DNA of 64,000 bases from Lingula anatina (Eukaryota > Animalia > Brachiopoda), in the NCBI GenBank assembly GCA_051362555.1, contig CM120645.1, positions 10,106,001-10,170,000 on the forward strand, written 5' to 3'. Position numbers and translations under genes: made by a program. A model generated the notes under the pieces. That model was not told the origin of the DNA and did not search any database. It worked only from the letters and a program-made list of their open reading frames with translations. The number at the start of each line of letters is the position of its first letter. The stretch's first letter is position 1. Positions 32,364 to 64,000 of this stretch are shown one piece after another.

Positions 32364-32469
32364 AATTTACCTGAAGAGGAAAAGTTTGAAAAATAAATGT
32401 AAAGAATAATAAAGAAATAGACATTCATTCCAACTGATCAAATGAAATATGTTTTTAGCACATTCCATT

Positions 32470-34202: not shown

Positions 34203-36640
34203 TGATAAGATAAGATAAGAGTTTATTCAGCCATTAATATATAAATATAAAATTCATATAAAACGGAAATTGGACTGCTATTCGGGTTACAAATTATAAA
34301 TAAATAAATTATAAATTTCCATTTTTGTTGTTAAAATAAGACACAGCAGATGGGTAAAAACTCTTTAAAAACCTTTTAGATCCCTTAAAAGTTAAAAGCC
34401 TGCAGTTGCTCGGTAAAAATTTAAAAAGCCCATGTGCGGGGTGGGTATAGTCAGACATGATTTTCTCTGTTTTTGTTACTGATCTATTAGTATAGATGGC
34501 ACCTAGAGAGGGGAGTTCCAGACCGATGATTTTGCCGCACGTTGATGTGACCATATCTAGACGCTTGCGTTCTTCTACAGTGGCCCGCCCATACCATACT
34601 ATGATTGCAAATGTTAATATACTTTCTATAACGCATTTGTAAAAGTTTGCTAAAATCATTTCATTTGAAGTAAAATCCTTCAACTTTCTTAAAAAATATA
34701 CCCTTTGCCTCGCTTTTTTTAACTGTTTGTCTATGTGGTCCTTCCATGTAAGTGAGCTATTGAATTCTACCCCCAGCAGTCTAAAATTGGCTACTTGCTT
34801 TACTGCAGTGCCACTGATATGAATGGGTTCTTTCACATTTCTATTCTTTCTGAAGTCAACAATCATTTCCTTAGTCTTCTCTACATTCAGTAACAAATCG
34901 TTGTCTTTACACCATTGTACAACTGAGTTGACATCGTTTCTATACCAGGTCTCATCATTATCACTTATTAAGCCAATTAAAGTGGTGTCGTCTGCAAACT
35001 TCACGATGCAATTACTCTCATGAGATGAAACACAATCATACGTGAACAAGCTGTACAGACATGGTGACAGAACACAACCCTGAGGCGCACCTGTATTTAA
35101 AACCACAATATCAGAAGTACTTGTACCCACTTTCACAGCTTGTCTCCTGTCTAATAAAAAATCTAAAACCCAACTGCATAAAAATGAAGGAAATTTCAGT
35201 TCGTTTAAAAGCTTAGCATAAAGTTTTTGTGGAATAATGGTATTAAAAGCCGAGCTGTAGTCTATAAATAAGATCCTTGCGTATGTGTTTTTCTTATCTG
35301 CGTGTTCTAAAATGTTGTGTATGCACATACTAAGAGCGTCATCTACGCTTCTATTGCGTCTATATGCAAACTGAAAGGGATCAAGTGTCTCTGGTACAAT
35401 GGTTTTAATATACGACAGAACAAGTTTCTCTAGAATTTTCATTGGGACTGGGGTCAACGCAACCGGACGGAGATCGTTTAGGCAAGAAACTGTTTTGGAC
35501 TTCGGCACAGGAATGATAGTAGCTGTCTTCCATGCCCGCGGAACTCGTTGGGAAAGCAGCGATAGATTGTAAATATCCGTGAATACATGTGCCAGTTGTG
35601 GTGCACATGTCTTTAGAAGCCTTGGCGAAATACCATCTGGTCCAGATGACTTGTGTGCGTCGAGGCCCATAAAATGACACTGAACCTGCCATTTCTGAAC
35701 AGAAAGGGGCGGTGGGTCATGTGGATGTGCATTTAGTGGAGCCGATCTTAAGTCCGAGTTGTTGGCAATGTCAAACCTAGCGTAAAATTCATTCAGCTTG
35801 TCGGGAAGTGCTGTGTCGTCGTCACTCAGTACGTGTTTTGGACCTTTGTATTTAGTGAGTGATGACATGTTTGACCATAGCTGTCTTACGTTATTGGTCT
35901 CAAACTTTTCTTCGAATTTCTTTTTAAAGTCTCTCTTGGCGTTCTTGATGGCCCATCGCAGGGTTGCTTTTAACTTCCGATAGTTTTCGGGGTGTTGTTC
36001 TTTGTTACGGTAGGCTACATCTTTTTCCTTAATGAGCTTGCGGATCTTGTTGTTGCACCAGAGCTTGTTGTTAGTAAACTGCTTCACTTGCTTTCTCGGG
36101 ACACACATTTCCTCACAGAATTGGATGTAACCAGTAACGGCATCGGTGTAGTTGTTAACGTCCTCAGTATCTCTGAATACCTCCCACTCGGTGGCCTCGA
36201 GGCAATCATGGAGGGTATCTATGGCTGCTTGGTTGAAAACTTTTACTGTTTTTATGGTGGGCTTGTTTTCCTTGAATTGTTGCTTGTATGTTGGAATTAG
36301 CAAGATTATGCAGTGGTCGGAGTTTCCTAAAGAGGATCGTTTGACTGGTTGGTACGCCCCTTTAATAGGACAATAGCAGTGGTCCAAAATGTTATTGCCC
36401 CTTGTCGGAAAATTGATGACCTGGCGATAATTAGGTAGTGTCGTTTTCAAGTTGGCTTTGTTGAAATCACCAAGGACAATAGATAATGAATCAGGTTCCG
36501 AATTTTCATGGGATGTGACGACTGATGTGAGGTTTTGTATTGCTATTTTTGTATCAGCCCGGGGGTGGATGTAGACGGCTGTAATTATGACACTAGTGAA
36601 TTCACGTGGTAGATAGAATGGCCTGCACTTTAGTGTTATT
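34203..36640 (-). mobile_element. 5'-truncated Rex1/Babar-type LINE
   Basis: Starts inside the APE domain; 3' end is AATAAA followed by a (TCTTA)n tail at ~34203-34222. Confidence 0.88.
34309..36640 (-). CDS. LINE ORF2: partial apurinic endonuclease + reverse transcriptase, uninterrupted
   Basis: KCRPFYLPREF, LGDFN, SDH, FIDYSSAFNTI, GAPQGCVLSP and KFADDTT motifs are characteristic of Rex/Babar ORF2. Confidence 0.9.
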
Positions 36641-37051
36641 ATGAGAACATACTGCAATTTTTTCAAACATAATCTTTAGTGTTCATATCTTATAGATGTT
36701 CACCTCTACTGCGATTTCCCTCAGGTGGCCATATCAACACACTAGCCTAGTAAAATCAATACAAAAATAGTAGGCCAACAGCCGAAAAACGACGGCCCGT
36801 AGTTATGCAAACAACTCAGTAGTTATGCAAACAATTACCAGCCATGTAATTATTCTTGATATTTCAGCACAGGGTCGCAGTAGATTGATTAAACATCGAT
36901 TTATCCAGAGACATATTTCTGCTAATAACTAGTGAAAAATCAATCTGTGGTCCTCGCAGGTAATGGGTGAAGCTACAGTGTACAGTTGTACATATACGTA
37001 TTGATCAGCGTACATCAAAAACCGTCGGTAGGAACTCGCTAACAGAATTCG

Positions 37052-45589: not shown

Positions 45590-46485
45590 GAGCCCCATTC
45601 CCATACCTAATTCGATCTAACAGGATGGACCCATCTCCGAGTAGGGGGGCCCTGAAGTTACATCCCATTTCCATAGATTTTAGATCGATCTATCCCTGTG
45701 GGGAGTCTCACTAGAAGCTGTAAGGGGGTAATTTACTATGGTGCCCGCTCGGCTGACTGCAATTTAGCGTGAACCCCCAGGGAGTTAGGTCGGTCTAAAA
45801 CTTAATCTTTAGATCGATCTAAATCTCTGGGAAAGCACCCTTAGTGTCTAGGTTCCAGTATTGTAGACAAATACCCTTACGACGTACACGGAGTTTTCGG
45901 TAGTCATTCTGTGGATATAGTTGGCCTAGGCCCTCGTCCTCCTTCACTGTGTGGTTTCTTCCACCTGCCCTGAAACATGCGGTGAAAATTTTACTTTTAT
46001 TTTAAAAACGTCTATTTCCGTAAGTCACTGCGGCCCTGCGGATGAACATTTAAGCTGTATTCCCAGAGCTTTTAGATCTATCTATCCCCGCGGGGAGTCT
46101 CACTAGATTACTGTCAGATAATCCGGCTTAAATGTCCGTCCCGCATACTACAGGCTGTAAGGGGATAATTAACTTTCGTGTCCGCTCGGCTGACAGCTAT
46201 TTAGCGTGAACCCCCAGGGAGTTAGGTCGATCTAAAGTAGATCGATCTAATCTCTGGAATGGGGTCTTAAGGTGCTTTCCCAGAGATTTAAATCGATCTA
46301 AAGATTAAGTTTTAGATCGACCTAACTCCCTGGGGGTTCAGGCTAAATTGCAGTCAGCCGAGCGGACACCAGAGTTAATTACCACCTTACAGCTTTTAGT
46401 AGGCGGGACAGACGGCCAAGCTGACAGTAATCTATTGAGACTCCCCACAGGCATAGATCGATCTAAAAATCTATGGAAATGGGGT
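45590..46485. mobile_element. Cluster of ~200-bp AGATCGATCT MITEs (PIF/Harbinger-like)
   Basis: Copies at ~45665-45840, ~46055-46267 and an inverted copy at ~46271-46485; same family as 56448-56662 and ~60858-61070. Confidence 0.75.
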
Positions 46486-48289
46486 GGTAGATGCGTAGGT
46501 AAGGCCTCTATTTGTAGTTTGAGGGTGAAATGGGGTCAGTGTATAAATTATTCTGTTGACTTTATACATTGTTTTGAAGACTTCAGGTACATGTACCTTT
46601 CTGAGGCCAATATGACCCTTAAGAATTGCTATAAAATCCCTACATAATTCCCGACGATATATTTCTATTGGATTTTTGTCCCAAGGCATCCGCCGCAGAC
46701 AGTCCTGCCAACCCTGCTCCCAGTATATGATAACCCTGTTCTTGCTGACTCCAGTGGAATCCATATTTGTTGATATCGGGCAGCTCGGTTTTATGTCAAA
46801 TACTGCAGCTTATATTGGCTGGTTAAGCGGCGGTGAATGCCGCGATATACTGACTGGAGTGTATGATGAGTCATGTCAGGTCAAGAGATGGAGGATTGTG
46901 TCATCTGAGGCCAAGAGGTAGATGCCATATCAGGAAAAAAAGTACATATCTTAAAGCAGCTCCTATGAATGATGCATTGAATAACAACAGAAACACAGTG
47001 TATCAGTTATAAAATCAATCCAGATTTATTATGACTTTGAAAACGTAGTTATACAAAATTGAAAAGAGGAAAGGAATGGACACTTATTTAAAGGAAAGCA
47101 CTCAGAGAGCACAAACCTCTAGCTGCCAAGGTGATTCAATTCTCATAATTGTTATCAATTAATTAATTATTGATTTACTAATTAATTCAGGGATGGCATT
47201 GGAAATTTCATGACCTTTTGCATAATGTTGCTCACAGACATTAATTAATTTATTAATTAATGGATCATCATCAAAATCCAATAATTAATTACTGGGTCCC
47301 TCAATCCTGACAGTTTCTTAAAATTGCATCAAAATCAGTCAGACAGACAAACAGAACCAAAAGCATAACCTCCAGGTTGAAAAAGTGGGGGCATCTCAAT
47401 AATCCAAAGGTTCATTAGTCCGAAAGATCATTGGTCCGAAAAATTGTATGCATGCACCTCTGAATGAATTTAGCTTTATTGCCAGCACACTATACACTTT
47501 ATTCATGCATTAACTCAGACTATAGAACCTTTGGACTATTACTACGGCCCCGAAAAAGCAGTACTATAACAAAGTACCTTCAAGATCTGTATAAGCTGAA
47601 TACCTATAATGCCTTAAGTAACACAAAATACTGCATCAGTCTTACATGCCTATTTGTATTAATAACTGATACTGTAATAATAATATCCAGTTAGTGCTTA
47701 TTATTTCTTTGGCTTTTCATTATCCTACTAGTACCAATACTTCCACCTTCAGTGACCACACATGCAACTTTTCTCCAGCATATGCAGCATACTGAGTAAT
47801 TATCTCTATAGTTTATATCCTATCAAAGTATCTATTGATTTAACATTTCAAACCTTAAATCATAGGTTTGAATATACACCCTTTTTTGCAGGGAAAAGTC
47901 GGCTCCATGTAAAAATTTATTTAGGTACGTGTACGTATGGTAAAAGGTCCACTTTTTCAGAACTTCCCCCCTTTTGAACTACCTGGCTACAGGCCTTTTA
48001 AGAGAATTAAAATTCTTAGTCTGATGGTAACTGGAGCACCACTAGTACTTTGCAAATGAACTTATTCAGACTATATGCAGAATAATGTAAATATGTATTG
48101 TAGATATTAGTCCATGAGCCGTACACTTTGTTGGTACCAAAAAAGGGCCAAATTCTCATAGTAATTTTTAGTAAGGCCTATGTCTCTAGTGTCCAAATAT
48201 GTGTGATAGCCTTCTCAATTTGGTAGCTTTTTATGATCTATCACACATTATATAACCCCGCCCCTCCTGTAGCAAGGGCTTTTTTTCAG

Positions 48290-49330
48290 ATGGGGGTGGG
48301 GGAGAGAAAATTCTCACAATATCAATATGGTAACAGGTACATCAATAAATTATATATCATTATGTAGGCAAGGGATAGTGCAATCAACTGCTGAACTCAC
48401 TCAAGCATGACAAATAGTCATGGGTCATCGATAATGGCGCAAAGGTCAAATGAGGTCAAATTTTGGTAATTTTTTGTAAAAGTGAACATGAAAGTTTCCA
48501 ATAAAATTCCATTGGATCTCAGAAATGGGTTTTAAGCTATAATTCCAACAAATTAGGCAAAAAAGAGGTATTAGAATGATTATGGGATGTTTCTTATCAT
48601 TATTGGGAAAATTGTGGGGTTGGATGTGCAAGCATAGTGAAAATTAGCCATTTCTCAAATATGGGGGTAGGGGTGAGAAAATGCTCACTATTTCAATATG
48701 GTAACAGGTACATCAATAAATTATATATCATTATGTAGGTAAGGGATAGTGCAATTAACTGCTGAACTCATTCAAGCATGACAAATAGACATGGGTCATC
48801 GATAATGGCGCAAAGGTCAAATGAGGTCAAATTTTGGTAGTTTTTTGTAAAAGTGAACATGAAAGTTTCCAATAAAATTTCATTAATTCACAGAAATGGG
48901 TTTAAAGCTATTATTCTTCTACATTAGGTAAAGAAGAGGTATTAGAATGATTATGGGATGTTACTTATCATTAATGGGAAAATTGTGGGGTTGGATGTGC
49001 AAGCATAGTGAAAATTAGCCATTTCTCAAATATGGGGGTAGGGGTGAGAAAATGCTCACTATTTCAATATGGTAACAGGTACATCAATAAATTATATATC
49101 ATTATGTAGGCAAGGGATAGTACAATCAACTGCTGATCTCACTCAAGCATGACAATTAGTCATGGGTCATTGATAATGGCGCAAAGGTCAAAAGAGGTCA
49201 AATTTTGGTAATTATTGGAAAACCTGAACATGAAAGTTTCCAATAAAATTCTATTGAATCAACGAAATGGGTTTGAAGCTATTATTTCACCACATTAGGT
49301 AAAAAAGAGGTCTAAGTTTGATTATGGGTA
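48290..49330 (+). repeat. 371-bp tandem repeats in the left TIR of the Academ element (about 2.8 units)
   Basis: ATGGGGGT(A/G)GGG unit starts at ~48289, 48661 and 49032. Confidence 0.9.
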
Positions 49331-49638
49331 TTATTTTAATGAACGGAGAAGAATATGTATGTTTATGACGTACAAAGCCGTCATCAAATTTCACTTAATA
49401 GAATTAAGTTTAAGATTTCACCAGACATTCATTACATTGAAATTAAGCCATAAATAAAGCAGGGGATATCTGTTCATCAGTTGCAGTTTAAAATATACTG
49501 CTACTGTACTGATATTTTAGAAATTTAAACATACAAATAAATAATAATGATAATACCTTTTAGCCACTTTCAGTTAACAACATGTATACATGTACACATT
49601 TTTCATATAATCTGCAGTCCTCAAAATGCAAATGCTAC

Positions 49639-52600
49639 TTAGTCTAAGTCATCTACTTCAGTCTCATTGTCACTGTCCCATTCTTCAATACTTTGCCGCG
49701 CCATGTTCTCGCAGTTATTGTTTCTGCACATGTCCGTGCATTGGAGGCCGTTTGCCATGCACGGACAGTTAGGTGGAGCACATTCTCGGGAACAGGTACA
49801 TGCCAGCAAGTCCAATACGGCCTGAGGTGCCGGCTGACCATCCATCCAGTCAATTACTAGCCTTTGCTTGGAATCTTCTTCAATTATTTTCCATCCTCTG
49901 TCGACTGGACTTGGTATATCTGGGTCATTTTCCAGACATCTCTTCCATATTGCTGCTTGGTAGTTTGCTCGTAATGCATGTTTTGACAAGCAGTCTTTGC
50001 AAGGTGGCAGCTGATGGCTTTCTATCTCACCTTTTTTTGCACAAAAAAGGTGGTACCTAAGGGTATTTACTTGAAGAGCACAATCATTTGAACCATACAT
50101 CTGGCAAGTAAAAGCCTCTAATCCCTCCATTAAACCTGGAGCCAAATCCCACTCCTGCCCCAATGAAGTGAAGGTGGCCTGAACATCTTTGTTTTTCCTT
50201 AACATTCTCAAAGCTGCTAACTTCCCTTTCCCTGCAAATGCACTCACTGTATCACAGCCTGTATATGCGTGTAGTCCTATTAGAGATTGACACACACCGC
50301 CACCAACTGTTTCACCAATCTTCCTAATATCAAGAATCTTCCTTCTGTTCCTGTTCCCATGCACTTGAAATACCTGTGCTCTTATACGCTCATGGAAAGC
50401 TAAGCACATAATAAAGACATCTGTGTCATCTGAACGTATGAAAACTGCAGTGTATCCCTGTGCTGAGGCATGAGCTGCATGTAGTACTAGCCGGCCATCA
50501 GCTTCCTCTTGGCTACACTGAAGGGCTGCCACCTCTTGGCTTCCATCACGAGTGATTCTACAGCATTTGTCATTGTTAGTGACATAAAGTGTCTTTTCTT
50601 GAAGCTTTTGGGTGTACTCTGTTTTCTGCCATTCATTGGTAATGAAGGCAATCAAATGAGATTTGTTGTAGACATGGCTTAAGAAAGACCTCCACTTTCG
50701 TACTATCTGCGATGCTGTGATCACTCCTTCTAACCTTTGTCCTGCATCTTCCCCCCTGAGAGACCGCTCACTGTTTTTGATGGACATTTCTCTATAGGTG
50801 TCAAATACCACGTCAATCCTCCTACTCTGACCTCCTTCATTCATTGCCATGTTAAAAACTGCTCTGGATACATCTCCAAATGTTGCTGGATCCCTGATGC
50901 GCTGGACAAGACCCATACCATCTACAATTGTAGCAGAATGTTTAGGTATCTGAAGCTGCTCTACTTCTGGTACATTTTTTTGCAAAGCTGGGACCAAACT
51001 AGCCTTGTTGGTTTTTCGTAGAGATCCTTCAGGAGTTGACAGTGCCCACGGTAAGGGTCCCAGAGGATGTGTCAATATATCTGACATTTGAATGTGACGT
51101 GCCTGAGCCATTATTATGATTCTCCCGAATAGTGACCTGTCAGCTTTCAATACAATGGTTCTGCCATTAGAGCTCACTGGTTTCTTCTTATTCAAATTGC
51201 TGAATGTCTTAAGATTCAGCCTCTTCAAGGGATCATAAAACTGCTCTTCTGGTGGATCATGCTCTAGACGCTGTTTAATGAATTTTTTGTACTTATCTTC
51301 TCCATACTCGAAAGCCTTCAGTAGATCAGAGGCAATATCAGGGGTGGCAGCTTTTGCTGTAGAAATACTGATTAAACTTTGGCTCGATGAAAAAGGGTTT
51401 ACCCAGCTTCGTAGCAAACTAACCACTTCAGAAACAGCTTCTTCGTCTTTCGTAAGCCTTGATTCCTGAAAATCAGAATGACATTCCATCCTACTGATTT
51501 GGACCATATCTCTTAGTTGACCCAGGAATGCACTACGGTGTTCGGCCGTAATGTAATATCTTTTGACTGCACCCGACTTCAGACTGAACCGCGTTGTTCC
51601 TCCTGGTGTCTGGGTATCCTTATTCACTGTGACCTCTGTGGCTTGATCAACTGGTAATCTGCCAAAGGGATTGGTGCTGGACATTTGGACTGAAAAATAA
51701 CCAGACATAAAAGCTTCATACACATCAGGTTTTTCCTCTGGAAGATTAGACATCTTTGCATAATATGCTGGCAAGTACCTGGCATAATTGAGTTTATCGT
51801 AGGCAAAACACCAAGGGATCATGGATTTTATGGCCCTGAGGTGCAGCTCCCAGTTTCCCTCACGTGAAGCACGCAGAAGACCTAGCAGCACATCTTCTAC
51901 TATATCAACATAGGACATCCAAAATGCTGACAGTTGCCCATTTCTAAGTCGGAGGTGTTGCAGGAAACTATTCCAGTGGTTGTGTAGGGCCAACAGGACA
52001 GGGCTCTGTAACAGTGTTTCGAAGCTGGTTTGGGACAAATCATTAGCCAGGTCATTGACTTGATCCCACACTGTGTTGAGGTTTAAGTTATCTATGGGGT
52101 GTTGTTCAATCCAAAGAAGAAACTCTTCCCAAGCTAATCTCATAAAAGCTTCATAGATGTACTTGTGGACTCGCACAGCTCTGTTGTACATCTTCCCATC
52201 CATCACTCCATTGACAGACCCCTCTGCTACAATCCCTGATTCTATGCATATATCCCTCAGACCTGCATCTTGAAAACGCTTTCCAATAATGGACATAACA
52301 TTGCATATTGTATGGAACACTCCCAATCGCAGTACAATGTTTTCGTATTTCTGTTTCTGCTTCCACATGATTTCTGCAGCTTTGGCAAAGAGGGCTTGGT
52401 CCATGACTACAACAATGTTTGGTAGCATAAGCTCCCTCCTTATCAGCTCAGACTGATTCATAATTTCAAATACAGTAGAAATTTCAGTTGCTGGGGCATT
52501 GATGGTAGGAAGGTATCCGATGTTGTCATTCGTGATTGGTTCCAAATCTCTACACGCTATGTTAAATCCAGTCCAGCTAGGTACACTTTGCTTCTCTCTC

Positions 52601-54363
52601 TGTTCAAACCTTGCTAGTGCCCATATGAGGTTCTTCTGTCTAGCAACTTCTGACTCGGTCCTGTTCTCAACTACATCCCTATCCCTTGTGATCAGTGGCT
52701 GTGGTCCAACTCTCTTTCCAGCAATGTATACTTGAAGTTCCTGGTGTTCAGCTGACACAGAGCGTTGTTTCTGTTTTGGTATACTTGGAAGCATGGCTTT
52801 GGGCAAGTGTGGCCCATACATTTTGGGCTGAACAGCAATCCCATTCACTCTGTGAGATGTCCCTTTACCAGTGAGGGTCTCTTCTAATCTGTCTATGTTG
52901 TCCCAAGCCAGATTTGTGAACACATAAGGTTGAATGGCAGATGGAATAACTACTTGTTGGTTAGCAGCTGCGGCCAATTTTTGAAGACAGAGTGCTGTGT
53001 CATTTTCTTCCAATTGTGAATAAGAGATTCCGTGCCCAAGCCTGTTAAGGGTTTGGATGATCTCAACATTTCCAGTTAATGTTTTAACTGCATATGGTAA
53101 GAGGACATGTTTTGGGGGTTTCTGTCGTCCGCCTGTTACTGCATAGATGATGTCCTGACTAAAAGACTGGATCAAGGTTTTGATTCTTTGTGTTGGCTTT
53201 TTGTTCTCTGGGTTCCCAGTTAGTAAACCTAGAAAAAACCTGGAAAGATATTCTGGAACTAAGAATGAATCCTGTGCAGTATCAGATGGATGACATGGCC
53301 AGGGCGTAGGCTGCAGGTTTTGTTTTATTGAAGATCGAATGTTGTGAGAAGCCTGGTCAATAATTTTACTTATATTTGAAGATTTTGTTGTCCAGAATTT
53401 CAGCTTGTTCTGTAAATTTTGATTTTCTATTGCCAAATCTTGTATCTGGAGACTATTTGGAATACCGACTAGTCGTCCCCTTTCATCTTGGTAAATATGA
53501 AAAATGCCTCCAAGCTCTGATTCTATTCTCCTCCGTAAGTGCTTTTTTGTAGAGGGTTTCAGGATTGTTGCACCCTTGGACGTCATCAGAGATTCCAGCT
53601 TAGTTGACAGTGAAATAAGAGTTACAATTTGTTTTTCTGGAATAACTGTGGACCTAATGTATTCATACAGTTCTGAGTAAGCCTCTGTCTCAATCACATC
53701 ATATGATATATCAGCATCTGTTTGTTTTTCATTTTCTGGACCGCTCTCCTCCCCTTTCTGTTCCTGGATTTTCTGATTTACTTTGGTATATGCTCTGTAG
53801 CATGAATGATGATAGTGAGCCTCTGCAGCGACAATATCTCTGCTTGTTACTGCTAATATCTTCTCATCTCTGTTCCTGGTCGCACATTCCCTTAATCTCT
53901 CATCCACTCTTAATTGTGTTGCCTTTATCAGTTTTTCACGAGTCTTTGATCCTTTTATGTACTTACTCTTTTCACAGAATATGCAAATGGTTTCATAGAC
54001 CCTTGATTCATGTGAAGAAGACCTTCTTGGTAATTTCTTTGCAGTGTCACTTTCTTCATCATAGTCACCTTTGTTAATTGTTTTTCTTCGTTTCAGTGTT
54101 TCCAGATCTTTTTTCATAGTAAAGATGCATCGACATTTTCTATGATAATATATATCAGGAATTTCTTTTTCTTTTAAATTCTTGGCAATGTCTAAAAGAG
54201 GGACATGGTTCCTTACTTCAGCTGCTTTAAGTAAAGAGCACCAAGACTCGTAACTGTTGGGCTTGACTAAGCGATCACTTTCATCATCTTCATCAGTGCT
54301 TGTGCTTGTTGGTTGATGTATAATACAAATTGGAGACAAATGGTGGCGTTCTGTTTTTTCCAT
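49639..54363 (-). CDS. AcademX transposase (1574 aa): DDE-type core + XPG/FEN1-like nuclease + Cys8 zinc finger
   Basis: LAWDNID, VMDQAL, RLGVFH and DQATEVTVN motifs; IVDGM, VVFDTY, EEADGR, SDDTD and GCDTVSAFAGKGK (XPG/H3TH); C-terminal CTCSRECAPPNCPCMANGLQCTDMCRNNNC; no stops. Confidence 0.93.
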   Translation of the reverse strand: MEKTERHHLSPICIIHQPTSTSTDEDDESDRLVKPNSYESWCSLLKAAEVRNHVPLLDIAKNLKEKEIPDIYYHRKCRCIFTMKKDLETLKRRKTINKGDYDEESDTAKKLPRRSSSHESRVYETICIFCEKSKYIKGSKTREKLIKATQLRVDERLRECATRNRDEKILAVTSRDIVAAEAHYHHSCYRAYTKVNQKIQEQKGEESGPENEKQTDADISYDVIETEAYSELYEYIRSTVIPEKQIVTLISLSTKLESLMTSKGATILKPSTKKHLRRRIESELGGIFHIYQDERGRLVGIPNSLQIQDLAIENQNLQNKLKFWTTKSSNISKIIDQASHNIRSSIKQNLQPTPWPCHPSDTAQDSFLVPEYLSRFFLGLLTGNPENKKPTQRIKTLIQSFSQDIIYAVTGGRQKPPKHVLLPYAVKTLTGNVEIIQTLNRLGHGISYSQLEENDTALCLQKLAAAANQQVVIPSAIQPYVFTNLAWDNIDRLEETLTGKGTSHRVNGIAVQPKMYGPHLPKAMLPSIPKQKQRSVSAEHQELQVYIAGKRVGPQPLITRDRDVVENRTESEVARQKNLIWALARFEQREKQSVPSWTGFNIACRDLEPITNDNIGYLPTINAPATEISTVFEIMNQSELIRRELMLPNIVVVMDQALFAKAAEIMWKQKQKYENIVLRLGVFHTICNVMSIIGKRFQDAGLRDICIESGIVAEGSVNGVMDGKMYNRAVRVHKYIYEAFMRLAWEEFLLWIEQHPIDNLNLNTVWDQVNDLANDLSQTSFETLLQSPVLLALHNHWNSFLQHLRLRNGQLSAFWMSYVDIVEDVLLGLLRASREGNWELHLRAIKSMIPWCFAYDKLNYARYLPAYYAKMSNLPEEKPDVYEAFMSGYFSVQMSSTNPFGRLPVDQATEVTVNKDTQTPGGTTRFSLKSGAVKRYYITAEHRSAFLGQLRDMVQISRMECHSDFQESRLTKDEEAVSEVVSLLRSWVNPFSSSQSLISISTAKAATPDIASDLLKAFEYGEDKYKKFIKQRLEHDPPEEQFYDPLKRLNLKTFSNLNKKKPVSSNGRTIVLKADRSLFGRIIIMAQARHIQMSDILTHPLGPLPWALSTPEGSLRKTNKASLVPALQKNVPEVEQLQIPKHSATIVDGMGLVQRIRDPATFGDVSRAVFNMAMNEGGQSRRIDVVFDTYREMSIKNSERSLRGEDAGQRLEGVITASQIVRKWRSFLSHVYNKSHLIAFITNEWQKTEYTQKLQEKTLYVTNNDKCCRITRDGSQEVAALQCSQEEADGRLVLHAAHASAQGYTAVFIRSDDTDVFIMCLAFHERIRAQVFQVHGNRNRRKILDIRKIGETVGGGVCQSLIGLHAYTGCDTVSAFAGKGKLAALRMLRKNKDVQATFTSLGQEWDLAPGLMEGLEAFTCQMYGSNDCALQVNTLRYHLFCAKKGEIESHQLPPCKDCLSKHALRANYQAAIWKRCLENDPDIPSPVDRGWKIIEEDSKQRLVIDWMDGQPAPQAVLDLLACTCSRECAPPNCPCMANGLQCTDMCRNNNCENMARQSIEEWDSDNETEVDDLD

Positions 54364-54999
54364 GGCACCTGAGAACTGTTAGGTAAAATGTAAGCAGTGA
54401 GTGAAAAAAAAGAGAGAAAAAACAGTTGTTTAAATAAAATCTGTAAATTTTGATCTTTTTATCGGTCTGTTATTTGATATCTCAGTTGAAATGTATTGTA
54501 GGAATCCAATTTATCAGATAAACTAATTAATGTTTCAACATTAAAGATCACGCTATAAATGAATATGCTGTACATACCTTTTCATTTCATATAGCCTTTC
54601 TTCAGATATGTCCACCCTCCAAGAGTTGAGTCTACTACTGCTATGCAGGGAAGAGTATACTTCACTTCTCCCAGAGTTAAATTCCAAATGAACCGTTTCT
54701 TATTATATAACGGTCTGTGGGGCTCTCACTTCAGTGTCAAAGTGTTAATGACCGTAACATGCATCAAAGTGAATTTTACTGAAGATGTTTACCAAATAAT
54801 TGATGATACATCACATTTGTCTTTACATTAAGGAATTTGCAGACACCAGTATATATTTATTTGCCTTTGCTTGGCTGAATTTATTTCAGCATAAAAGGGT
54901 GTTAATCATGCGAAATTATTTTAAATTAAGACAAAAAAGTGTTTTTATTGCAATTCATTTTCAAATGTATATTTTGGCAATAAAGAAGTAGAATTTATT

Positions 55000-55800
55000 G
55001 ATGAACCTATTACCATATTGAAATTGTGAACAGTTTCTCACCCCTACCCCCATATTTGAGAAATGGCTAATTTTCACTATGCTTGCACATCCAACCCCAC
55101 AATTTCCCTAATAATGATAAGAAACATCCCATAATCATTCTAATACCTCTTCTTTACCTAATGTAGTGGAATAATAGCTTAAAACCCATTTCTGTGGTTC
55201 AATGGAATTTTATTGGAAACTTTCATGTTCACTTTTACAAAAAATTACCAAAATTTGACCTCATTTGACCTTTGCGCCATTATCAATGACCCATGGCTAA
55301 TTGTCATGCTTGAGTGAGATCAGCAGTTGATTGCACTATCCCTCGCCTACATAATGATATATAATTTATTGATGTACCTGTTACCATATTGAAATAGTGA
55401 GCATTTTCTCACCCCTACCCCCATATTTGAAAAATTGCCTAATTTCACCATGCTTGCACATCCAACCCCACAATTTCCCCAATAATGATAAGAAACATCC
55501 CATAATCATTCTAATACCTCTTTTTTGCCTAATTTGTTGAAATTATAGCTTAAACCCCATTTCTGTGATTCAATGGAATTTTATTGGAAACTTTCATGTT
55601 CACTTTTACCAAAAATTACCAAAATTTGACCTCATTTGACCTTTGCGCCATTATCAATGACCCATGACTAATTGTCATGCTTGAGTGAGATCAGCAGTTG
55701 ATTGCACTATCCCTTGCCTACATAATGATATATAATTTATTGATGTACCTGTTACCATATTGATATTGTGAGAATTTTCTTTCCCCTACCCCCATCTGAA
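55000..55800 (-). repeat. 371-bp tandem repeats in the right TIR of the Academ element (about 2.1 units)
   Basis: CCCCTACCCCCAT at 55041, 55412 and 55783; reverse complement of the left array. Confidence 0.9.
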
Positions 55801-56447
55801 AAAAAGCCCTTGCTACAGGAGGGGCGGGGTTATATATTGTGTGATAGATCATAAAAAGCTACCAAATTGAGAAGGCTATCACACATATTTGGACACTAGA
55901 GACATAGGCCTTACTAAAAATCACTATGAAAATTTGGCCCTTTTTTGGTACCGATAGGTGAAAATCATGGGCTTGGCTCATGGACTATATGTTAAAACAT
56001 GTATTTTGCATTTAATCATACTTCATCAATGTGAATATTGCAGGCATTTGTACCTACATATAACTATGACATTAGTTAAAAGTACAATTATGGTTCTTTT
56101 TACTATATGTAGTACAAGTACAGAAGGCCCCATTGGGGGGTGGTCACTGTTCACAGGAAATAAAATCATTCACAAATCACAGTAAATGAGACTTTCTTTG
56201 CATCTCATCGAAAATGCAGGAAATGTGACCTGAAAATCCCAAATCACCCAGTATAATGACTTCATTTCATGAATAATGAAGAATGAAAAGCTGTATTCAC
56301 AAGTTACGGAAAGGGGGTTCTTCATAGATTACACTGAATAATATGAGGGTTTCACCTCATGAAATATGAAGTGGCTTACTGGGTAATGCAAATACCCAAT
56401 GGAACCCTTAATTCAGTGCACACTGTGTATATGTCGCAATTCACTAA

Positions 56448-56662
56448 GGGCGTATTCCCATAGATTTTAGAAAGATCTATCCCCGTGGGGAGTCTCACTA
56501 GATTACTGTCAGATAATCCAGCTTAAATGTCCGTCCCGCCTACTACAAGCTGTAAGGGGGTAATTAACTTTCTTGCCCGCTCGGCTGACAGCTATTTAGC
56601 GTGAACCCTCTGGGAGTTAGGTCGATCTAGTTTGGATCGATCTAATCTCTGGGAATGGGGTC
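56448..56662 (+). mobile_element. AGATCGATCT-family MITE (PIF/Harbinger-like)
   Basis: GGGCGTATTCCCA...TGGGAATGGGGTC with TAA duplicated at 56445-56447 and 56663-56665. Confidence 0.8.
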
Positions 56663-57219
56663 TAAGTCTCAGCTAGAACAGTTACTGTAATACTATACAA
56701 AAGATCAAAATATGCCTGGCATACATTTTTGGTCTTAATACAGACTGGCTGTATTAATTGACTTTATCACCTAGCTACCTGGGTATAGCTTAGACAATAC
56801 CCTCTGCTGGTATTTCAGAAGAGCTATCACTTCTTAACTGTAAAATATACATATATATATACAAACCTGTTGTAGATGTAAAAATGCTCTGTACATAAAC
56901 TATAGTATCTTACAAAACACTCCTTTATAATATTTTCTAAATACCAGCAATTGATCTAATTTTACTTCTAAAATCAATGCCTTATTACAAAATTAATTAT
57001 ATACATGCATGGTTAAAAATTTTTTTCAAGAAAGCTGTTTGCACAAGTACTAGTATATACAATTCAAAATAAAAATACAAAAAAGAAAAACAGGTACATT
57101 TTATCTATTACACGTTTGATTTTCTGTAAGATTGGTCCAAATTTTTGTTCTTTTTGCTACATACTTTTGTATATTTTAACCCCTGCAAAAAACTCAGTCA
57201 AGTACTACAGCATGTGTCT

Positions 57220-57498
57220 CTAAAGGTCGACCAGTACAATCTCTGCCCAATCCAACTCTTCAGGTGTATTACCATATTTGTCCATGACTATTTTAACATG
57301 AAATGTGACCCCAGATTTCACTACCCTCATCTTGTCCTGGTCCAAGTCATGGATACTGTTAATGGCGTAGTTGATGGTGCTGATGTATGCTTTGATGACT
57401 TCATCTTGCTGGAACTGTGACGGCAACTTAATTGGATTTCCCTTATATTTTTCTGCACAAAACGTAAGGGTGTAGTGTCTGTTCACAACTTTCTCAGC
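57220..57498 (-). CDS. Terminal exon of the metacaspase-like gene (unrecognised C-terminal domain)
   Basis: (t)n-cag|GCT GAG AAA GTT...GAC CTT TAG; phase 0 matches the upstream donor. Confidence 0.8.
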   Translation of the reverse strand, partial: AEKVVNRHYTLTFCAEKYKGNPIKLPSQFQQDEVIKAYISTINYAINSIHDLDQDKMRVVKSGVTFHVKIVMDKYGNTPEELDWAEIVLVDL

Positions 57499-57749
57499 CT
57501 GAAAAAAAAAAAAAGGTAAAGTTGGCAGTCTGAATGTTACATGAGACTACATATACATTCACATCTCTTTGGTTTGAGTAAACCTATAGTTGATCCCACC
57601 TTCCCTCTCGTCACATGCCCAAACTAAGTCCTTCATTAGGCCAGCTACAGGATGACCAGTCTTCCAAACAAACAAGGACTGAATCAGAATTGGTTGCAGG
57701 CAACTTCCAATCTTAGTTGGGATGTACATAAGTCCTTAATTACATGTAC

Positions 57750-58009
57750 CTTGAAAACTAAGTCTTCTTTTCCTGTAGTTACTGTTACTAGGTGATCCAA
57801 CAATTCAATCAGCTTTCCCCTGTCAATGTGCAGAAGCACTATGGGCCCTGACAGAAGTTTGAAGTTGGTCTGTGCCGTCCTCAGGCAACAGTGCAAGGGA
57901 AAGTTACGGTCCAAAGACTGCTGAAGTTCCTTATCATCATCAATCTCTTTATGAAGTGCTTCTTCCATCAAACAGAGCTGTTCTCCCGTTACACTTGAGG
58001 GAAATAGCC
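57750..58009 (-). CDS. Penultimate exon of the metacaspase-like gene
   Basis: ttgcag|GG CTA TTT...TTC AAG|gtacat; 260 nt, phase 1 to 0, open. Confidence 0.8.
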
Positions 58010-58362
58010 CTGCAACAACAACAACATATTTAAACTAATTTCACTTAAAACCAACTGTTGTTTATGTAACATAAATTTGTTAACATATGGGAAAGTTTGC
58101 CATATAAATTTATGTCATACTAGTACAAATAGCTTTTAAATAACAAATAATGCTCTTTTCATATGCTACCCTCTGACATCGGGAGACTCTAAATTGATAT
58201 ACAAATTAAATTAAATTATAAGCAAGACAATAATTTTGTAACAGACAGACAACTAGAACACTTGACAACCCCTTTAGTTAAATATAATGCTAATAATAAA
58301 CACTGGCTGCTACATCTTACCCCCAGGATACATCTAAATTAATGGGATATCAACTCTTCATA

Positions 58363-58702
58363 CACTAGTGGGCTAGATTTGGTCTTAAAGTGCAATTTAA
58401 GTTCACAAGTGATCTTACACGATCTTAATCATTACAGCAGTAGTCTTAAAATGAACTGAATCTGCTTTTAAGATCAAAAATGATCTAACATCTACTTAAG
58501 TGGTCAAGTAGTTTCCTCCCTTCACAATGGGGGATACCTCCCCTCACAATAGAGGACACCTCTGATCACAATAGGAGAATGTGTAAGAGGAGACAACTTA
58601 ATTGGCTGTTAGACCAGAAATGGTCTTACTCTTGTTTTAAGATCGTGTAAGACTATTTGTGTACTTAAATTGCACTTTAAGACCAAATCAAGCCCACTAG
58701 TG
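58363..58702. mobile_element. EnSpm/CACTA-type MITE
   Basis: CACTAGTGGGCT...AGCCCACTAGTG with ~40-bp TIRs; 3-bp TSD ATA at 58360-58362 and 58703-58705. Confidence 0.85.
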
Positions 58703-59074
58703 ATAGGAGATTCAAAATTCCATAATAGATATATTGGAACGACACACAGAAAAATATATAAAAATTCCATTTTAACCATCAATTTGAAAATGACATCATC
58801 GCAATTATTCTGAGATCTGTGCTTGCTCTCAGACCAAATGGTCCTTCAGAGATGGCTACCCTCTGTAATAATCTCTTAAAATCAAGGTTACTTCAAAAAC
58901 AACACTAAAGAAACAATTGACAAACTTTGAATGTCAGAAAGGATTCATTTACCACTGGAACATATGAGAAAGTGCCACTTTCCCCAGGTATATCTGGTTC
59001 CCCATCAAAACGAAGAGTTGTCATCCCTTATTAGTAGTTTATCAAAAGCAACATTACTGAATAAAATGACAAAC

Positions 59075-60024
59075 CTTTTTCTTTCACTTCTCCAGCTATA
59101 TAATCTTTAATGGCTGACAGCTTTGCTTCTACTTGGTCTGTCAGTTTTATGACCAGTGTTTCTTTGGGGGTAAAAACCACTACTTCCTGACACAAGTGCC
59201 TCTTGTTGTAATATGCTATTTTCATAGGGCGTCTCTCACTAAGAGTGTTCATTGGTTGTTGGATTTTGTAATTAGCCAATTCTTTCTTGACATGTTCAAA
59301 CACATAGCTATGCAGGATTTCACGTGAAATGTATCCCTTCACTAGTGCTTCTTCTTGCAATTTTTTACATAAGTTGCATTGGTCAGTGGTGTCCTGAAGG
59401 CCACATTTGTGGCCACTTTTCAGCCCATTCACCATGTGTTTTGTGAAAACACTTAGTTCATATTTGGGATCTCCTTGAGATTTCTGATTCTCTGCACAGG
59501 ACCACCATTCATAATGGCAAAAGTTGTCAGATTCACGAGGATTGGGGCCTTTGTCAAAATACCTTTCAGTAAGTGTGTTGGGTGACCTGCTGCCAGCTGA
59601 ATCACCATCTGGATCAGTTTCTAAGTCTTTGGTTTTTGTTGGCGATTCTTCAATGCCTTTGCCAACCATCTGTGAGCTTTCATCTTTTCTTTGTGAATCT
59701 GGTGGTCTCTGAGTGGAACTTGTTTTCCCCTTTTCAAATAAGTTATTAGAAGCTGCAAAGCAACAATCCAAAATAATTAGTTTCTCTGAAGCATTAAGGT
59801 CCTCAAACATTTTCTGCAATTCCCCTTTGGTGATTTGAAATGACCCATCTCCTGGTAGATCCAAACCTTCCTTAGTTCCATGGCCTGAGTAAAAGAACAC
59901 AAAAGTGACTTCTGGAAGCCCTGATGTCTTTTCCTTAATTTTGTTTATATGATCTTCAATTTTCTGCTTAACGTTTTCACTTTCCCTTTTTTCGTCACAC
60001 AATATCATGTACACCTGGCTCTCC
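59075..60024 (-). CDS. Main exon of a caspase-fold (peptidase C14, metacaspase/prokaryotic-like) protease
   Basis: VTFVFFYSGHG (catalytic His), KLIILDCCFAA (catalytic Cys), low-complexity linker, then p10-like WWSCAENQKS...SVFTKHMVNGL; acceptor caacag|G and donor G|gtttgt. Confidence 0.88.
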
Positions 60025-60490
60025 CTGTTGAAAAAAATACTATTAATCTTTTACAAAATATCATTATAATTATTATGCTTTATAACTCTATCATTATCAT
60101 TTATAGTTATAGTAATTATTGTTACATTTTTACAGTATATAGGTTGTTTAGTTGAATTAAAACCATGCTATGCAAAGAACAGAAACTTGACATACTCAAG
60201 CTTATGCTAGGTACATGTATAGATACTGTTAGCTATTGCAGTGACAAACATACATGACATTTAACTTTACTCCATGTAATTTAGTGGGTATTATGAAATA
60301 TTTGCAGGCATTCATTTTATTTTTATTAATATATGACTGTCAAAACAGCAATTACTTTAGTAAGTAATAATAAATCAAATCAATTTTAGAGATGCTAGTC
60401 GAAACTGAAATCAAAATTTTAAAACGGCATTTAGCCAAAATGTCTACACTCACTTAAGCAAGACTGACTTTAGTACTATTACATAAATAC

Positions 60491-60611
60491 CTGAAACCCA
60501 TAATGTTGTGATTAATAAGAACTCTTTTGAACTCTAGGACATCATTTTGATATATTTCAGGATTCTTTTCATCAAACCCACCAACTAGTACAGCAAAACT
60601 GTTATCATGCC
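60491..60611 (-). CDS. Exon encoding the first strand/helix of the caspase-fold domain (not in the ORF track)
   Basis: ttttag|GG CAT GAT...TTC AG|gtattt encodes NSFAVLVGGFDEKNPEIYQNDVLEFKRVLINHNIMGFR, matching the C14 pattern ALLIG...ND...L...GF; phase 1 to 2 fits both neighbours. Confidence 0.85.
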
Positions 60612-60857
60612 CTAAAATACAGAAATCAAATATGCTTCAGATTTAAATACACTGGGGAAAAAAAAAGACATTGTTTTTTTTAAACTGATTTTAAAATAAA
60701 CATATGAACTAAAGTTAATATTATAGCCAAATATCGATGGATGTGGCACCCAACAATTATTACTTTGAAATTTTCCAAGGAAATGAATTCTGTGGTTTGA
60801 GCAAGTCTTGACAATAAACAGTGGCTGTTTCACAAGATATATATAGTACTCAATGAG

Positions 60858-61070
60858 TCCATTCCCACAGATTTAGATCTATCCATCTAGATCGATCTAA
60901 CTCACTGGGGGGTTCACGCTAAATTGCTGTCAGTTGAGTGCACACGGTAGTTAATTACCCCCTTAGAGCTTTTAGTAGGCGGGACAGACATTTAAGCCGG
61001 CTAAGCTGACAGTAATCTAGTGAGACTACCCACAGGGATAGATCCAGCTAAAATCTGTGGGATTGGGGTC
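60858..61070 (-). mobile_element. AGATCGATCT-family MITE, inverted copy in an intron
   Basis: Reverse complement of 56448-56662. Confidence 0.75.
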
Positions 61071-61461
61071 TATTTTAAGTATATTGTATACCCCCCCCAA
61101 AACGGTGCATACCATTTGCAAAAATAAGGATTTTTTAATGTCTTTTTACTGTTTATTGCCAAGACTTGCTCAAACTGCAAACTATTAACATCATTGCTCC
61201 ATTTGCATGATTTGTGAAAATGAAATTTCACGTCATATTGTCACAGAAATGACAAAGGCAATAAAGATTTTGACTGTCAAGGAAATGACAAAATATAAGC
61301 AAGTCTTGACAATAAACAGTGGAGGCTTCACATGATTCTGATGTTGAGTGTATATTAGATAAAAGTGCATAGTGGTCAGAGCATCACTAAAATGATCCTG
61401 TTTCTCCTCACTTTAAAATATTAAATGCTTTAATAAAAGAGATTCATTGTCTGTTGACTAA

Positions 61462-61753
61462 GGCCTAACTAAAAACAGAAGATCCAAGGATCTACAGATT
61501 CACAGATCCAATATAGCAGACCCTACATGAAAGAAGAGTCAATTAATCTGCTAATGGTCTCCCAGCCTCCCAATGCACCATAACATGGACTAAATCACAG
61601 CTCCAAGGTGTAATTGCTAGACCCTACCCCTGCAAGGATGACACATGGAGGTGGAAAGATCATCAGCAGGTTAATCTGCTCTTCTTTTGTGTAGGGTCCG
61701 CGATATCTGATCCGTTGATCTGTAAATCCTCGGATCTTCTGTTCTAAATGGCC
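61462..61753. mobile_element. Small MITE with GGCC ends
   Basis: AACAGAAGATCCAAGGATCTACAGAT near the left end is inverted as ATCTGTAAATCCTCGGATCTTCTGTT near the right end. Confidence 0.6.
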
Positions 61754-61799
61754 TATAAGACCAGATACAAGTAACAGATATAAACTATTAATTCCTCAC

Positions 61800-62006
61800 C
61801 AATTGGTGGCTGAGTACGGCCATGGGTTGGACAGTACAGAGGGTTGCGATAGTGATCCGTTAGGCAGCCTTGACAAAATATCGCACATTTTTCTTTTTTG
61901 ATTGGCTTGCTGCAGTTGATTCTTGGATGTAAATTCTCGGCTAAATTAAAATTAGCACAAACAACATTAATATCTCTTTGACCTACATGTAAATTAATCA
62001 CTCTAA
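61800..62006 (-). CDS. Exon with a degenerate RING-like Cys/His motif upstream of the caspase domain
   Basis: CAIFCQGCLTDHYRNPLYCPTH resembles the RING C-terminal half (CxxFCxxCL...CPx[C/H]); donor G|gtgagg is phase 1; acceptor is at 62006 or 61982. Confidence 0.6.
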
Positions 62007-62317
62007 CTTGAAAAAATACTATAAAGAACAAATGCAGTATCAAATTATGTTTAAAACTGGTTGCTGTAGTCCATGTTTATTGTAATGCCCCTCTGTCAAA
62101 AGAAATGTACTTCCACCAGCAGTGTAGCAGTTATCAATGAAAAACACTGAGTAGTGCGAAATTATTACAAGCAACATGCAATTATTGCAAAGGGGTTGGT
62201 CAAAAGCAAAGTTAAAACTTAGATATCCAAACAGTTCTCAATACTAACAGCATGGTACGAATCTCATAATGCTGACAGTTTTATGGTCTTACCATAAAGT
62301 TCACCAAAAAAAAAAAA

Positions 62318-62777: not shown

Positions 62778-64000
62778 ATTACAAAACAATACATAGTTTC
62801 CCTTAAAAATGTTTAAAAGATCTAAAACAGTATTATAGTCATTTGATATATGCTAATTATAAAAAACACAGTTATAGTGCTGCTAGACCTTCATTATGCA
62901 CTGAAACTGATTCTAAAAACTGAGAAGTCTGCAAAATGAATTAACTTAGAAATGGAAAATGTTGATACATGCAAACAGACCAATGCAAAAAATTGAAAAA
63001 TTGAAATTTTTAAGTTTTTCAAAAAACATTGAATTAATCTTGTTCTCAGAAGTTTGTGAGATGGGTTAATTTAATTATAATCCTTGCTAGCTTCTAGAGT
63101 GATTTATGTATGTTAAATGCATGTATAAATAAATATATATTTTAATTTACATGACTCATACAGGTTTAAATATGTATGAACAATGTTATGTAAGTACTAT
63201 ATGCAAGATACATAAAATTCAATGTCTTTGTTTACTATAGTTTCAATCAAATTTATAAAAGAAAAACTCATTGAGAAAGAACAACAAAATTGGCCCTAAA
63301 ATATAAAATATCCAACTAACATATGGCAATTAAATAAAAGCTGCTGATCTATGCATCTATATATATATACTGACTCTACCATGGGGAAAATTGTTAATTT
63401 AACTGATAGTGCTTCATCAAGCCATACATTCTTAAAATTGCCACTTTCCTGCTACATTCATGTGTATATATACGTACCATTTAAGTGCATGATAGCCATA
63501 TGCTATATAGCTGTATATATATTTGATTCTGATTCCATATACATATTTTGTTTGTTATAGTGATTTCCATTCTAATGACTCATTTCTTAGAACTTCTAGT
63601 CCATTTGTCAGTAAAGAACAACAAAAATCTCAGAACAGAACAGTCCAATTCTTCATATTCTTCATCTTGTAGCTGTTCATGAAAGCTTATAGATATATAT
63701 ATATACCTAAATTCTCAAATGTACTTTGTCAAGTTTCTCGTTGTCTTACCACTTCTAGATTCAAAGACATTTCATCACCAGTTTGTTGTTAACATACACA
63801 AATAAATTAAATGTTGAAGTACTTTGGATGATACCTTATTTTCCTGACTTTGTGGATTGTTCTTTGCAAATAAAACTAGCAGACGACCATTTTTGATGAA
63901 ATGGAACTACTTTTCACAGGAAGTAGTGTATTCATACGCAACAGTACATGTGACCTTGGGTATGGAATACAAAAAAATAGTACATGCATTCATACTGTCA

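Follow-up and report, generated by a model that had tools for sequence, protein, structure and literature searches.

A metacaspase-like C14 protease gene of the brachiopod Lingula anatina and its apparently undescribed family in marine bilaterians

The window analysed here is a stretch of 64,000 nucleotides from the brachiopod Lingula anatina (assembly GCA_051362555.1, contig CM120645.1, positions 10,106,001 to 10,170,000). On its minus strand lies the 3' part of a gene for a caspase-fold protease of peptidase family C14 (Table 1). A first-pass annotation, made from the letters without database searches, had joined five exons with consistent phases into one open frame, and this structure is confirmed: the four introns (1188, 466, 1065 and 251 nt; phases 1, 2, 1 and 0) all have GT-AG borders, and the spliced frame runs for 604 codons without an internal stop to the TAG at 57220-57222. 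GC content is 0.41 in the exons and 0.37 in the window as a whole. The spliced product carries the motifs FAVLVGG...QNDV, FFYSGHG and LIILDCCFAA from which the protease had been recognised, and the proposed check against the Pfam Peptidase_C14 profile (PF00656) was positive with exon 3 alone (E 8e-8; score 32.6 bits, cut-off 21.4). Inverted repeats resembling miniature inverted-repeat transposable elements (MITEs) sit in introns 1 and 3, and bacterial contamination is unlikely, as had been argued from the introns and the embedded MITEs. A dispersed repeat of about 200 bp in intron 1 recurs at 46057-46485 and 56452-56663.

The gene model is 5'-incomplete, because its first exon begins mid-codon and contains no Met. 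Of the bounds first proposed for this exon, 61800-62006, the end at 61800 stands, but the start is more likely an acceptor at 61940, judging by similarity to the closest Lingula protein: identity begins at that point, whereas nothing in this protein corresponds to the 22 codons at 62006-61941.

Transcription was assessed in raw RNA reads from eight of the nine runs under the species label, with 6-30% of each run used. Intron 2 is spanned by three reads (run X7), intron 3 by three, five and one (X4, X6 and X8) and intron 4 by two and three (X4 and X7). For intron 1, no joint was among those listed for these samples, and the junction check that the first-pass annotation had called for thus succeeded for three introns out of four. 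Counted by first mate, the X6 reads cover the exon bins at depths of 0.2-15 on the plus strand and at 0 in the opposite orientation. In most stranded libraries, a first mate on the plus strand denotes RNA from the minus strand. Two further signals were seen. Four X6 reads join 57380 to 57873 through 25 letters of other sequence, which removes a net 72 codons from exons 4 and 5 and keeps the frame; for this form an allele, a paralogue or an odd splice form are candidates. At 63532-64000, just upstream of the gene, reads run opposite to it in orientation (depth 13.8 in X6, 1.9 in X5, none in X8 or X9); the signal could be a plus-strand transcript or a repeat.

The catalytic residues were examined across the family. 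An exhaustive phmmer search returned 57 matches at E <= 0.001, of which 30 were looked up; 43 matches and three further rows form the alignment A1. Fourteen bacterial-looking or unclear matches were omitted, so the counts, taken over rows with a residue at the column, describe a chosen set. The dyad is invariant: all 41 rows with a residue at the first position have His, and all 45 at the second have Cys. In its residues the dyad is thus intact, as first proposed. The residues of an acidic S1 pocket are likewise kept: the Asp of helix alpha1 in 25 of 25 rows, the L3 Ser in 38 of 40, and the L4 Asp, two residues before the Cys, in 45 of 45. These positions align with those of AtMC4, AtMC9 and a yeast Mca1, and the alpha1 Asp with that of solved metacaspases; the same positions are described as setting the Arg/Lys specificity, through an acidic S1 pocket, of TbMCA2 and MALT1 (PMC4357240). 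Because the dyad and both S1 aspartates are invariant, the protease is predicted to cut after Arg or Lys, a specificity that the first-pass annotation had raised as possible.

The p10-like half of the domain contains a family-specific insert of the form Cys...CxxC...His, whose four ligands are present in 45, 45, 44 and 45 of 45 rows and which is likely to be a structural zinc site. The insert is also found in a protein of Cyanophora and in three unassigned proteins. It is absent from all nine plasmid and all ten prokaryote-genome caspase loci, and from P0056, an animal-like match outside A1. A Lys-Gly/Ala site lies 5-18 residues past the catalytic Cys, and is present in the window; among related sequences it is a weak hint of a conserved self-cleavage site. 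We infer that self-cleavage would take place in the linker that follows the Cys.

The closest named relatives are Lingula anatina proteins with 81-84% identity, and four such models are the only word-index matches. P0005 matches the first half of the spliced product (81%) and P0003 the second (84%); since they match successive halves and come from scaffolds of equal size, they are probably two parts of one split gene. Another Lingula model, P0002, is 56% identical over 447 residues and has the layout DED-DED, kinase, Cys/His finger, protease; this public model seems to end by read-through of the donor of the long protease exon. Twelve of the 30 matches looked up are named animal proteins, two each from Owenia, Haliotis, Glandiceps, Saccoglossus, Ptychodera and Branchiostoma, most of them on contigs of 24-89 Mb; the other named sources are the glaucophyte Cyanophora paradoxa and a bacterium (one each). 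Together with Lingula, these genera, among them three acorn worm genera and amphioxus, represent what we take to be five animal phyla. Among these named sources, which come from one query and about half of its matches, there is no cnidarian, sponge, echinoderm, ecdysozoan or vertebrate. A search confined to proteins of 3701-5000 residues found no homologue in that range and is uninformative otherwise.

The usual layout in this family is a variable head, a kinase, a Cys/His finger, the C14 protease and often a ubiquitin-like domain. Pfam finds the kinase in 12 of the 17 aligned members of at least 500 aa; its catalytic motifs are degenerate in some members, and from its motifs we take it to be Pelle/IRAK-like. 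The heads comprise DED, Death, TIR, ankyrin, Roc-COR-CARD and A20-like fingers. The finger upstream of the protease has eight ligands (C7H) in 12 of the 25 members checked and is partial in five; it is absent from all four non-animal or unassigned members checked. Exon 1 of the window encodes the last six of the eight ligands. We read their spacing as RING-like; whole-protein Pfam scans gave no RING match for the finger. The domain after the protease, modelled in the Lingula counterpart, is a beta-grasp (best Z 9.0, rmsd 3.0 over 89 aligned residues, to a PLC-epsilon RA domain), and the 50 matches listed are all RA, PB1, FERM or UBL-type chains. This ubiquitin-like domain is missing in the named deuterostome and Haliotis members. 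The last 130 or so residues gave no Pfam match, no usable language-model match and a low-confidence model. Several metagenome gene calls start or stop near the borders of window exon 3, an indirect hint that intron positions are common to the window gene and metagenome members. A metagenome scan yielded one intronless animal-like locus; at L010:433-3963, on a 5-kb contig with eukaryote-like non-coding flanks, stands an intronless TIR-kinase-finger-protease-UBL member of 1177 aa with degenerate kinase motifs. The first-pass annotation had proposed a protease from an overlooked animal lineage. We found no description of the family, but the locus is not a lone oddity: it is the 3' part of a member of a multidomain family that occurs in five phyla.

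Membership of peptidase family C14 (clan CD) is supported by the PF00656 match above its cut-off, by alignment of a homologue model to C14 chains at Z 12-21 and by the invariant dyad. The profile of A1, run against PDB at E up to 10, retrieves metacaspases as its ten best sequences (E 2e-8 to 9e-4), followed by PIGK and a Geobacter protein, and among its 18 matches there is no caspase and no MALT1; the window exon alone had no PDB sequence match. A model of the P0002 region (pLDDT 78.6, pTM 0.77) has a caspase-haemoglobinase fold with a disordered linker, and Foldseek ranks AtMC9 first and MALT1 next; structure prediction and Foldseek had been suggested as checks by the first-pass annotation. 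VIA-align places AtMC4 at Z 21.0 (rmsd 2.9, 211 aligned), legumains at 20.3-21.0, AtMC9 at 19.4, PIGK at 19.2, MALT1 at 18.5, caspase-8 at 18.1, Yca1 at 16.2 and TbMCA2 at 12.6. As far as this model goes, the fold is certain and the subfamily is undecided by structure.

The label that fits the protease is metacaspase-like, not true metacaspase, because three hallmarks are missing or lack support: the calcium-site aspartates, the p10 consensus and the extra strand pair. The Asp pair is replaced mostly by Ala/Val/Ser and Ser/Ala/Arg in 40 family rows and by Lys-Gly in the window; the columns are those facing Asp-Asp of AtMC4, which by our inference correspond to the TbMCA2 site of D173, D189, D190 and D220. 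The p10 consensus SGCxDxQTSADV, for which a 75% match is needed (PMC3734836), is matched at 3 of 10 positions in the window and at no more than 4 of 10 in 60 rows. No strand is predicted between beta4 and the next core strand, and the linker there has pLDDT <50. The description as metacaspase or prokaryote-style protease is supported in that the PDB profile retrieves metacaspases, with the qualification that hallmarks of a true metacaspase are missing or lack support. Marks of several related protease groups are also absent. Caspases are defined by QACxG and a basic S1 pocket (Arg, Gln, Arg; PMC4357240), and the family has a DCC motif and Asp at alpha1 and L4. MALT1 has a Death domain and Ig domains around the protease; here no Ig family appears among the best five Pfam families per protein in 54 matches and P0002, and a beta-grasp follows the protease. 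PF01650 (Peptidase_C13), the family of legumain and GPI transamidase, is absent from the insert-bearing animal members, with one weak match in the unassigned P0053. The NCBIfam model caspase_w_EACC1 (NF047832) matches 43 of 46 members far below its cut-off (first row 51.5 against 140 bits; best E 2e-19), and PADLOC gives only a weak generic caspase match. The family does have what characterises the prokaryotic and phytoplankton metacaspase-like proteases (orthocaspases), a p20 region with a His-Cys dyad and no p10 consensus; this category is defined by absence, so that falling into it shows no common descent (PMC3734836).

The trees were built without MALT1, caspases, type 2 paracaspases or eukaryotic metacaspases, and their plasmid outgroups are the top matches of one member, which biases them. 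In the 60-row tree, a branch supported at 83/61 separates the 36 animal-like rows from the rest; within them, the split between deuterostome and spiralian-type members is weak. When the insert is removed, along with four long rows (L009, L008, P0041 and P0053), the two non-animal members join EAD1-linked and cyanobacterial caspases (81/95), and a 96/97 branch groups these EAD1-linked and cyanobacterial proteins with the family. The trees do not establish a clade made up of eukaryotes alone, nor does the AU test reject one (p-AU 0.37). Recent bacterial transfer and contamination are unlikely, since the ten loci of a prokaryote genome scan are only 25-34% identical and none has the insert. The two origins first suggested, ancient retention and horizontal transfer (here an early one), are both possible. 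Pattern scans with three single proteins found no relative on viral contigs, and giant-virus caspase-like matches in Foldseek are 8-13% identical. Plasmid relatives of the non-animal member P0019 adjoin EAD1 genes at three of nine loci and TIR genes at one; in L001, L003, L004 and L008 the caspase-like gene lies directly 3' of an EAD1-domain gene (three cases) or is flanked by two TIR genes (one). Because the kinase-finger-protease module is common to spiralians and deuterostomes, its distribution suggests inheritance from a bilaterian ancestor with patchy loss and shuffling of head domains.

Taken together, the gene structure, transcription, the dyad and S1 residues, family membership and the kinase and head fusions of relatives lead us to regard it as somewhat probable that the gene encodes a metacaspase-like C14 protease with Arg/Lys specificity, which would be switched on by a signal and act as an effector of innate immunity or cell death in invertebrates. 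The window copy would then have upstream exons past the window, as its Lingula relatives do (DED-DED-kinase or a kinase remnant). We suggest that the head domain would recruit the protein to a receptor platform. Clustering there, to which the kinase and the RING-like finger may contribute, would turn on the protease independently of calcium; the trigger would be proximity or dimerisation, as it is for caspases and MALT1. This type of activation is proposed because the core is predicted to have six strands, without the additional pair that holds type I metacaspases in the monomeric state. Self-cleavage in the Lys/Arg-rich linker could follow, and then cleavage of substrates. A bacterial TIR-activated caspase-like protein is described as Arg-specific (10.1101/2024.10.24.620036).

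Several observations weigh against this interpretation. The Lys-Gly/Ala site is found in only 13 of 43 members, against a background of 13%, and the linker has 25 residues or fewer in 15 of 40. Five of the 17 long members have no kinase, and the closest Lingula model retains only a degenerate kinase C-lobe. Deep nodes of the trees are weak, with the animal-like group at 83/61 with the insert and 56/83 without it. In the structural comparison metacaspases do not stand out: AtMC4 and legumain score alike (Z 20.5-21.0), and MALT1 and caspase-8 outscore the type I metacaspases Yca1 and TbMCA2. Expression is low and two poly(A) runs are nearly blank; reads and window differ at several percent of positions, and alleles or paralogues may therefore be the source of some reads. 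A tblastn search of the window with six family proteins found neither a kinase nor a DED exon like those of the Lingula relatives; about 2 kb upstream of the gene is visible. Some of these points would be expected under a rival reading, in which the family at large is functional but the window copy is a duplicate that has lost its 5' end or is decaying, or else a scaffold without catalytic activity; it would be transcribed and yield no regulated protease. The copy has no start codon or upstream exon in the window, read depth is low, the kinase of the closest model is a remnant, four reads show an internally deleted form and the surroundings are repeat-rich. We nevertheless consider this reading unlikely: 604 stop-free codons, intact in-frame splice sites and all catalytic, S1 and insert residues are kept, identity to Lingula models is 81-84% along the whole length, and the missing 5' end is judged from just the 2 kb that can be seen.

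The nature and role of the protease could also be read differently. That the family is a fast-evolving offshoot of the animal paracaspases (MALT1 or type 2), Arg-specific and dimer-activated with no separate lineage, would agree with the six-stranded core and acidic S1 pocket, which are paracaspase features (PMC4357240), with the alignment to MALT1 at Z 18.5 (rmsd 3.0, 196 residues), and with the repeated origin of paracaspases from metacaspase-like stock (PMC5978004). Yet MALT1 is missing from a PDB profile search that does find metacaspases, PIGK and a bacterial protein, the members scanned have no Ig domain, type 2 paracaspases are described as protease-only and non-bilaterian (PMC5978004), and the insert is common to the family and a glaucophyte protein; we regard this descent as quite unlikely. 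That the protease is a true metacaspase of type C14B(M), which animals retained or reacquired and which calcium activates as a monomer, appears most improbable. The best sequence matches of the family are all metacaspases, its best Foldseek matches are AtMC9, and its top language-model neighbours are plant metacaspases at 0.89, a value that serves as a lead only; but the calcium-site Asp pair is not conserved, the p10 consensus agrees at 3 of 10 positions, the model shows no additional strand pair and many linkers would be too short to hold one, and type I structures score lowest of the C14 chains. An active Arg/Lys protease might instead serve a housekeeping or developmental role, in proteostasis or the processing of kinase signals, and not immunity or death. 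Non-death roles are reported to be common for metacaspases (10.64898/2026.09.23.753419), and a finger and ubiquitin-like domain would fit proteostasis. We find this role very unlikely, since lineage-specific duplication and the swapping of DED, Death, CARD, TIR and Roc-COR heads form the pattern of marine-invertebrate conflict proteins (PMC8195603).

The favoured reading, a signal-activated metacaspase-like effector, can be extended to a broader proposal, to which we hold only tentatively and against which we would lean slightly. Bilaterians may possess a third C14 lineage beside caspases and paracaspases, of pre-animal age, Arg/Lys-specific, calcium-independent and zinc-containing, in which swappable DED, Death, CARD, TIR or Roc-COR heads and a fused kinase would make a one-chain immune-death switch. 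It would reach from brachiopods to amphioxus, with none seen in vertebrates, flies or worms.

We found no description of the family in the full-text literature, a search that left subscription papers mostly outside; it is apparently an undescribed metacaspase-like C14 subfamily of marine bilaterians. Metacaspases are stated to be absent from, or lost in, animals, in reviews dating up to 2025-2026 (PMC4357240, Table 1; PMC12914765; 10.64898/2026.09.23.753419) and in PMC10565124. In the available text of a 2024 survey of 60 lophotrochozoan genomes, including Lingula and Owenia, the words metacaspase and paracaspase never occur, and the sole kinase-caspase there is a flatworm protein among true caspases (PMC11463336). 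The nearest precedent is a bdelloid preprint that mentions divergent 'putative metacaspases' of obscure origin (10.1101/2021.09.04.458992). Bacterial caspases linked to EAD or EACC1 domains and shuffled immune architectures in marine invertebrates have been described (PMC8195603, PMC7159879). If our interpretation is true, the rule that metacaspases are absent from animals would need qualification, given a metacaspase-like lineage that has kept its catalytic residues intact and occurs in five phyla, invertebrate chordates included. This lineage would add a third protease class to animal death-fold signalling. It would also connect the caspase-like defence proteins that bacteria couple to EAD and TIR domains with an animal family missed by caspase-centred searches.

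Table 1. Features of the protease gene and of its introns (window coordinates).
Feature	Position	Strand	Remarks
Exon 1 (first in window)	61800..61940, in-frame alternative start 62006	-	X6 stranded depth 3.2 over bin 61824-62067
Exon 2	60491..60611	-	Protease strand beta1 and helix alpha1; S1-pocket Asp codon 60541-60543
Exon 3	59075..60024	-	Most of C14 domain and start of ubiquitin-like domain; PF00656; RNA joints at both ends
Exon 4	57750..58009	-	Second half of ubiquitin-like domain and start of C-terminal domain; identity to Lingula P0003 89%; both ends confirmed by RNA joints
Exon 5	57220..57498	-	C-terminal alpha/beta region and stop; matches P0003; X6 depth 10.8
Catalytic His codon (SGHG)	59880..59882	-	His in 41/41 rows with a residue
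Asp-Cys-Cys	59760..59768	-	S1 Asp 59766-59768, catalytic Cys 59760-59762; both in 45/45 rows with a residue
Variable linker after catalytic Cys, 81 residues, 12 Lys/Arg	59517..59759	-	Putative self-cleavage region; pLDDT <50 in homologue model
Cys...CxxC...His insert, p10-like half	59292..59405	-	Codons 59403-59405, 59376-59378, 59367-59369, 59292-59294; predicted zinc site
Ubiquitin-like (beta-grasp) domain, limits approximate	57867..59204	-	Begins at the end of exon 3 and continues in exon 4, interrupted by intron 3
MITE-like element, 87-nt inverted arms	58342..58723		In intron 3
Inverted-repeat elements, 28-nt and 97-nt arms	60795..61743		In intron 1; also the ~200-bp dispersed repeat

Elsewhere in the window, inverted terminal repeats of about 970 bp, 95% alike and both ending in GGTACC, enclose a stop-free frame of 1579 codons (54378-49642, minus strand) at 48133-55952, a candidate for an intact DNA transposon; the frame has a weak Pfam TCR/CXC match (E 0.31) and almost no RNA in four runs. 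TIR-domain exons lie at 1887-2474, 27013-27357 and 31794-32366 (minus strand), the last two 63% identical and part of a local duplication of about 3 kb. Reverse-transcriptase elements lie at 34312-36675 and 16902-19081 (minus strand); the second ends in what we read as a GIY-YIG-like motif, which would make it Penelope-like. Tandem and inverted satellite-like repeats occupy 8136-12430, with units of about 145 bp, and 20000-26400.

Compared with the metacaspases AtMC4, AtMC9, Yca1 and TbMCA2, the family agrees in its SGH and D-x-C motifs and in the alpha1 Asp, the L3 Ser and the L4 Asp, and some members have a long p20-p10 linker as in type II enzymes. In contrast to them, it has no calcium-site aspartates, p10 consensus, predicted extra strand pair or alpha1 Cys; it has the Cys3-His insert and fusions to kinase and death-fold domains, and is found in animals. 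Orthocaspases, whether EAD1-linked, of EACC1 type or TIR-linked (type IV Thoeris), resemble it in their motifs, in having no p10 consensus and in their variable fusion partners. They differ in sequence (24-34% identity), in having no insert at 19 of 19 loci and no finger, and the animal genes, unlike theirs, bear introns and are fused to animal-type heads. With MALT1 and other paracaspases, C14B(P), the family has in common a six-stranded core, an acidic S1 pocket, an Arg preference (predicted in the family), a death-fold head in some members and, likely, activation by proximity; unlike them it has no Ig domains, carries Ser-Gly-His and Asp-Cys-Cys motifs, and has a kinase, finger and ubiquitin-like domain instead. 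The bdelloid Peptidase_C14 'putative metacaspases' (10.1101/2021.09.04.458992), compared by description only, are likewise divergent animal proteins resembling bacterial ones; the text available mentions them in passing, calls their origin 'obscure' and gives no architecture. Finally, initiators of the caspase-8/10 type and the IRAK/Pelle or RIPK kinases also place DED-DED, Death, CARD or TIR heads before an effector. The family, in contrast, has neither QACxG nor basic S1 residues, and puts head, kinase and protease in one chain.

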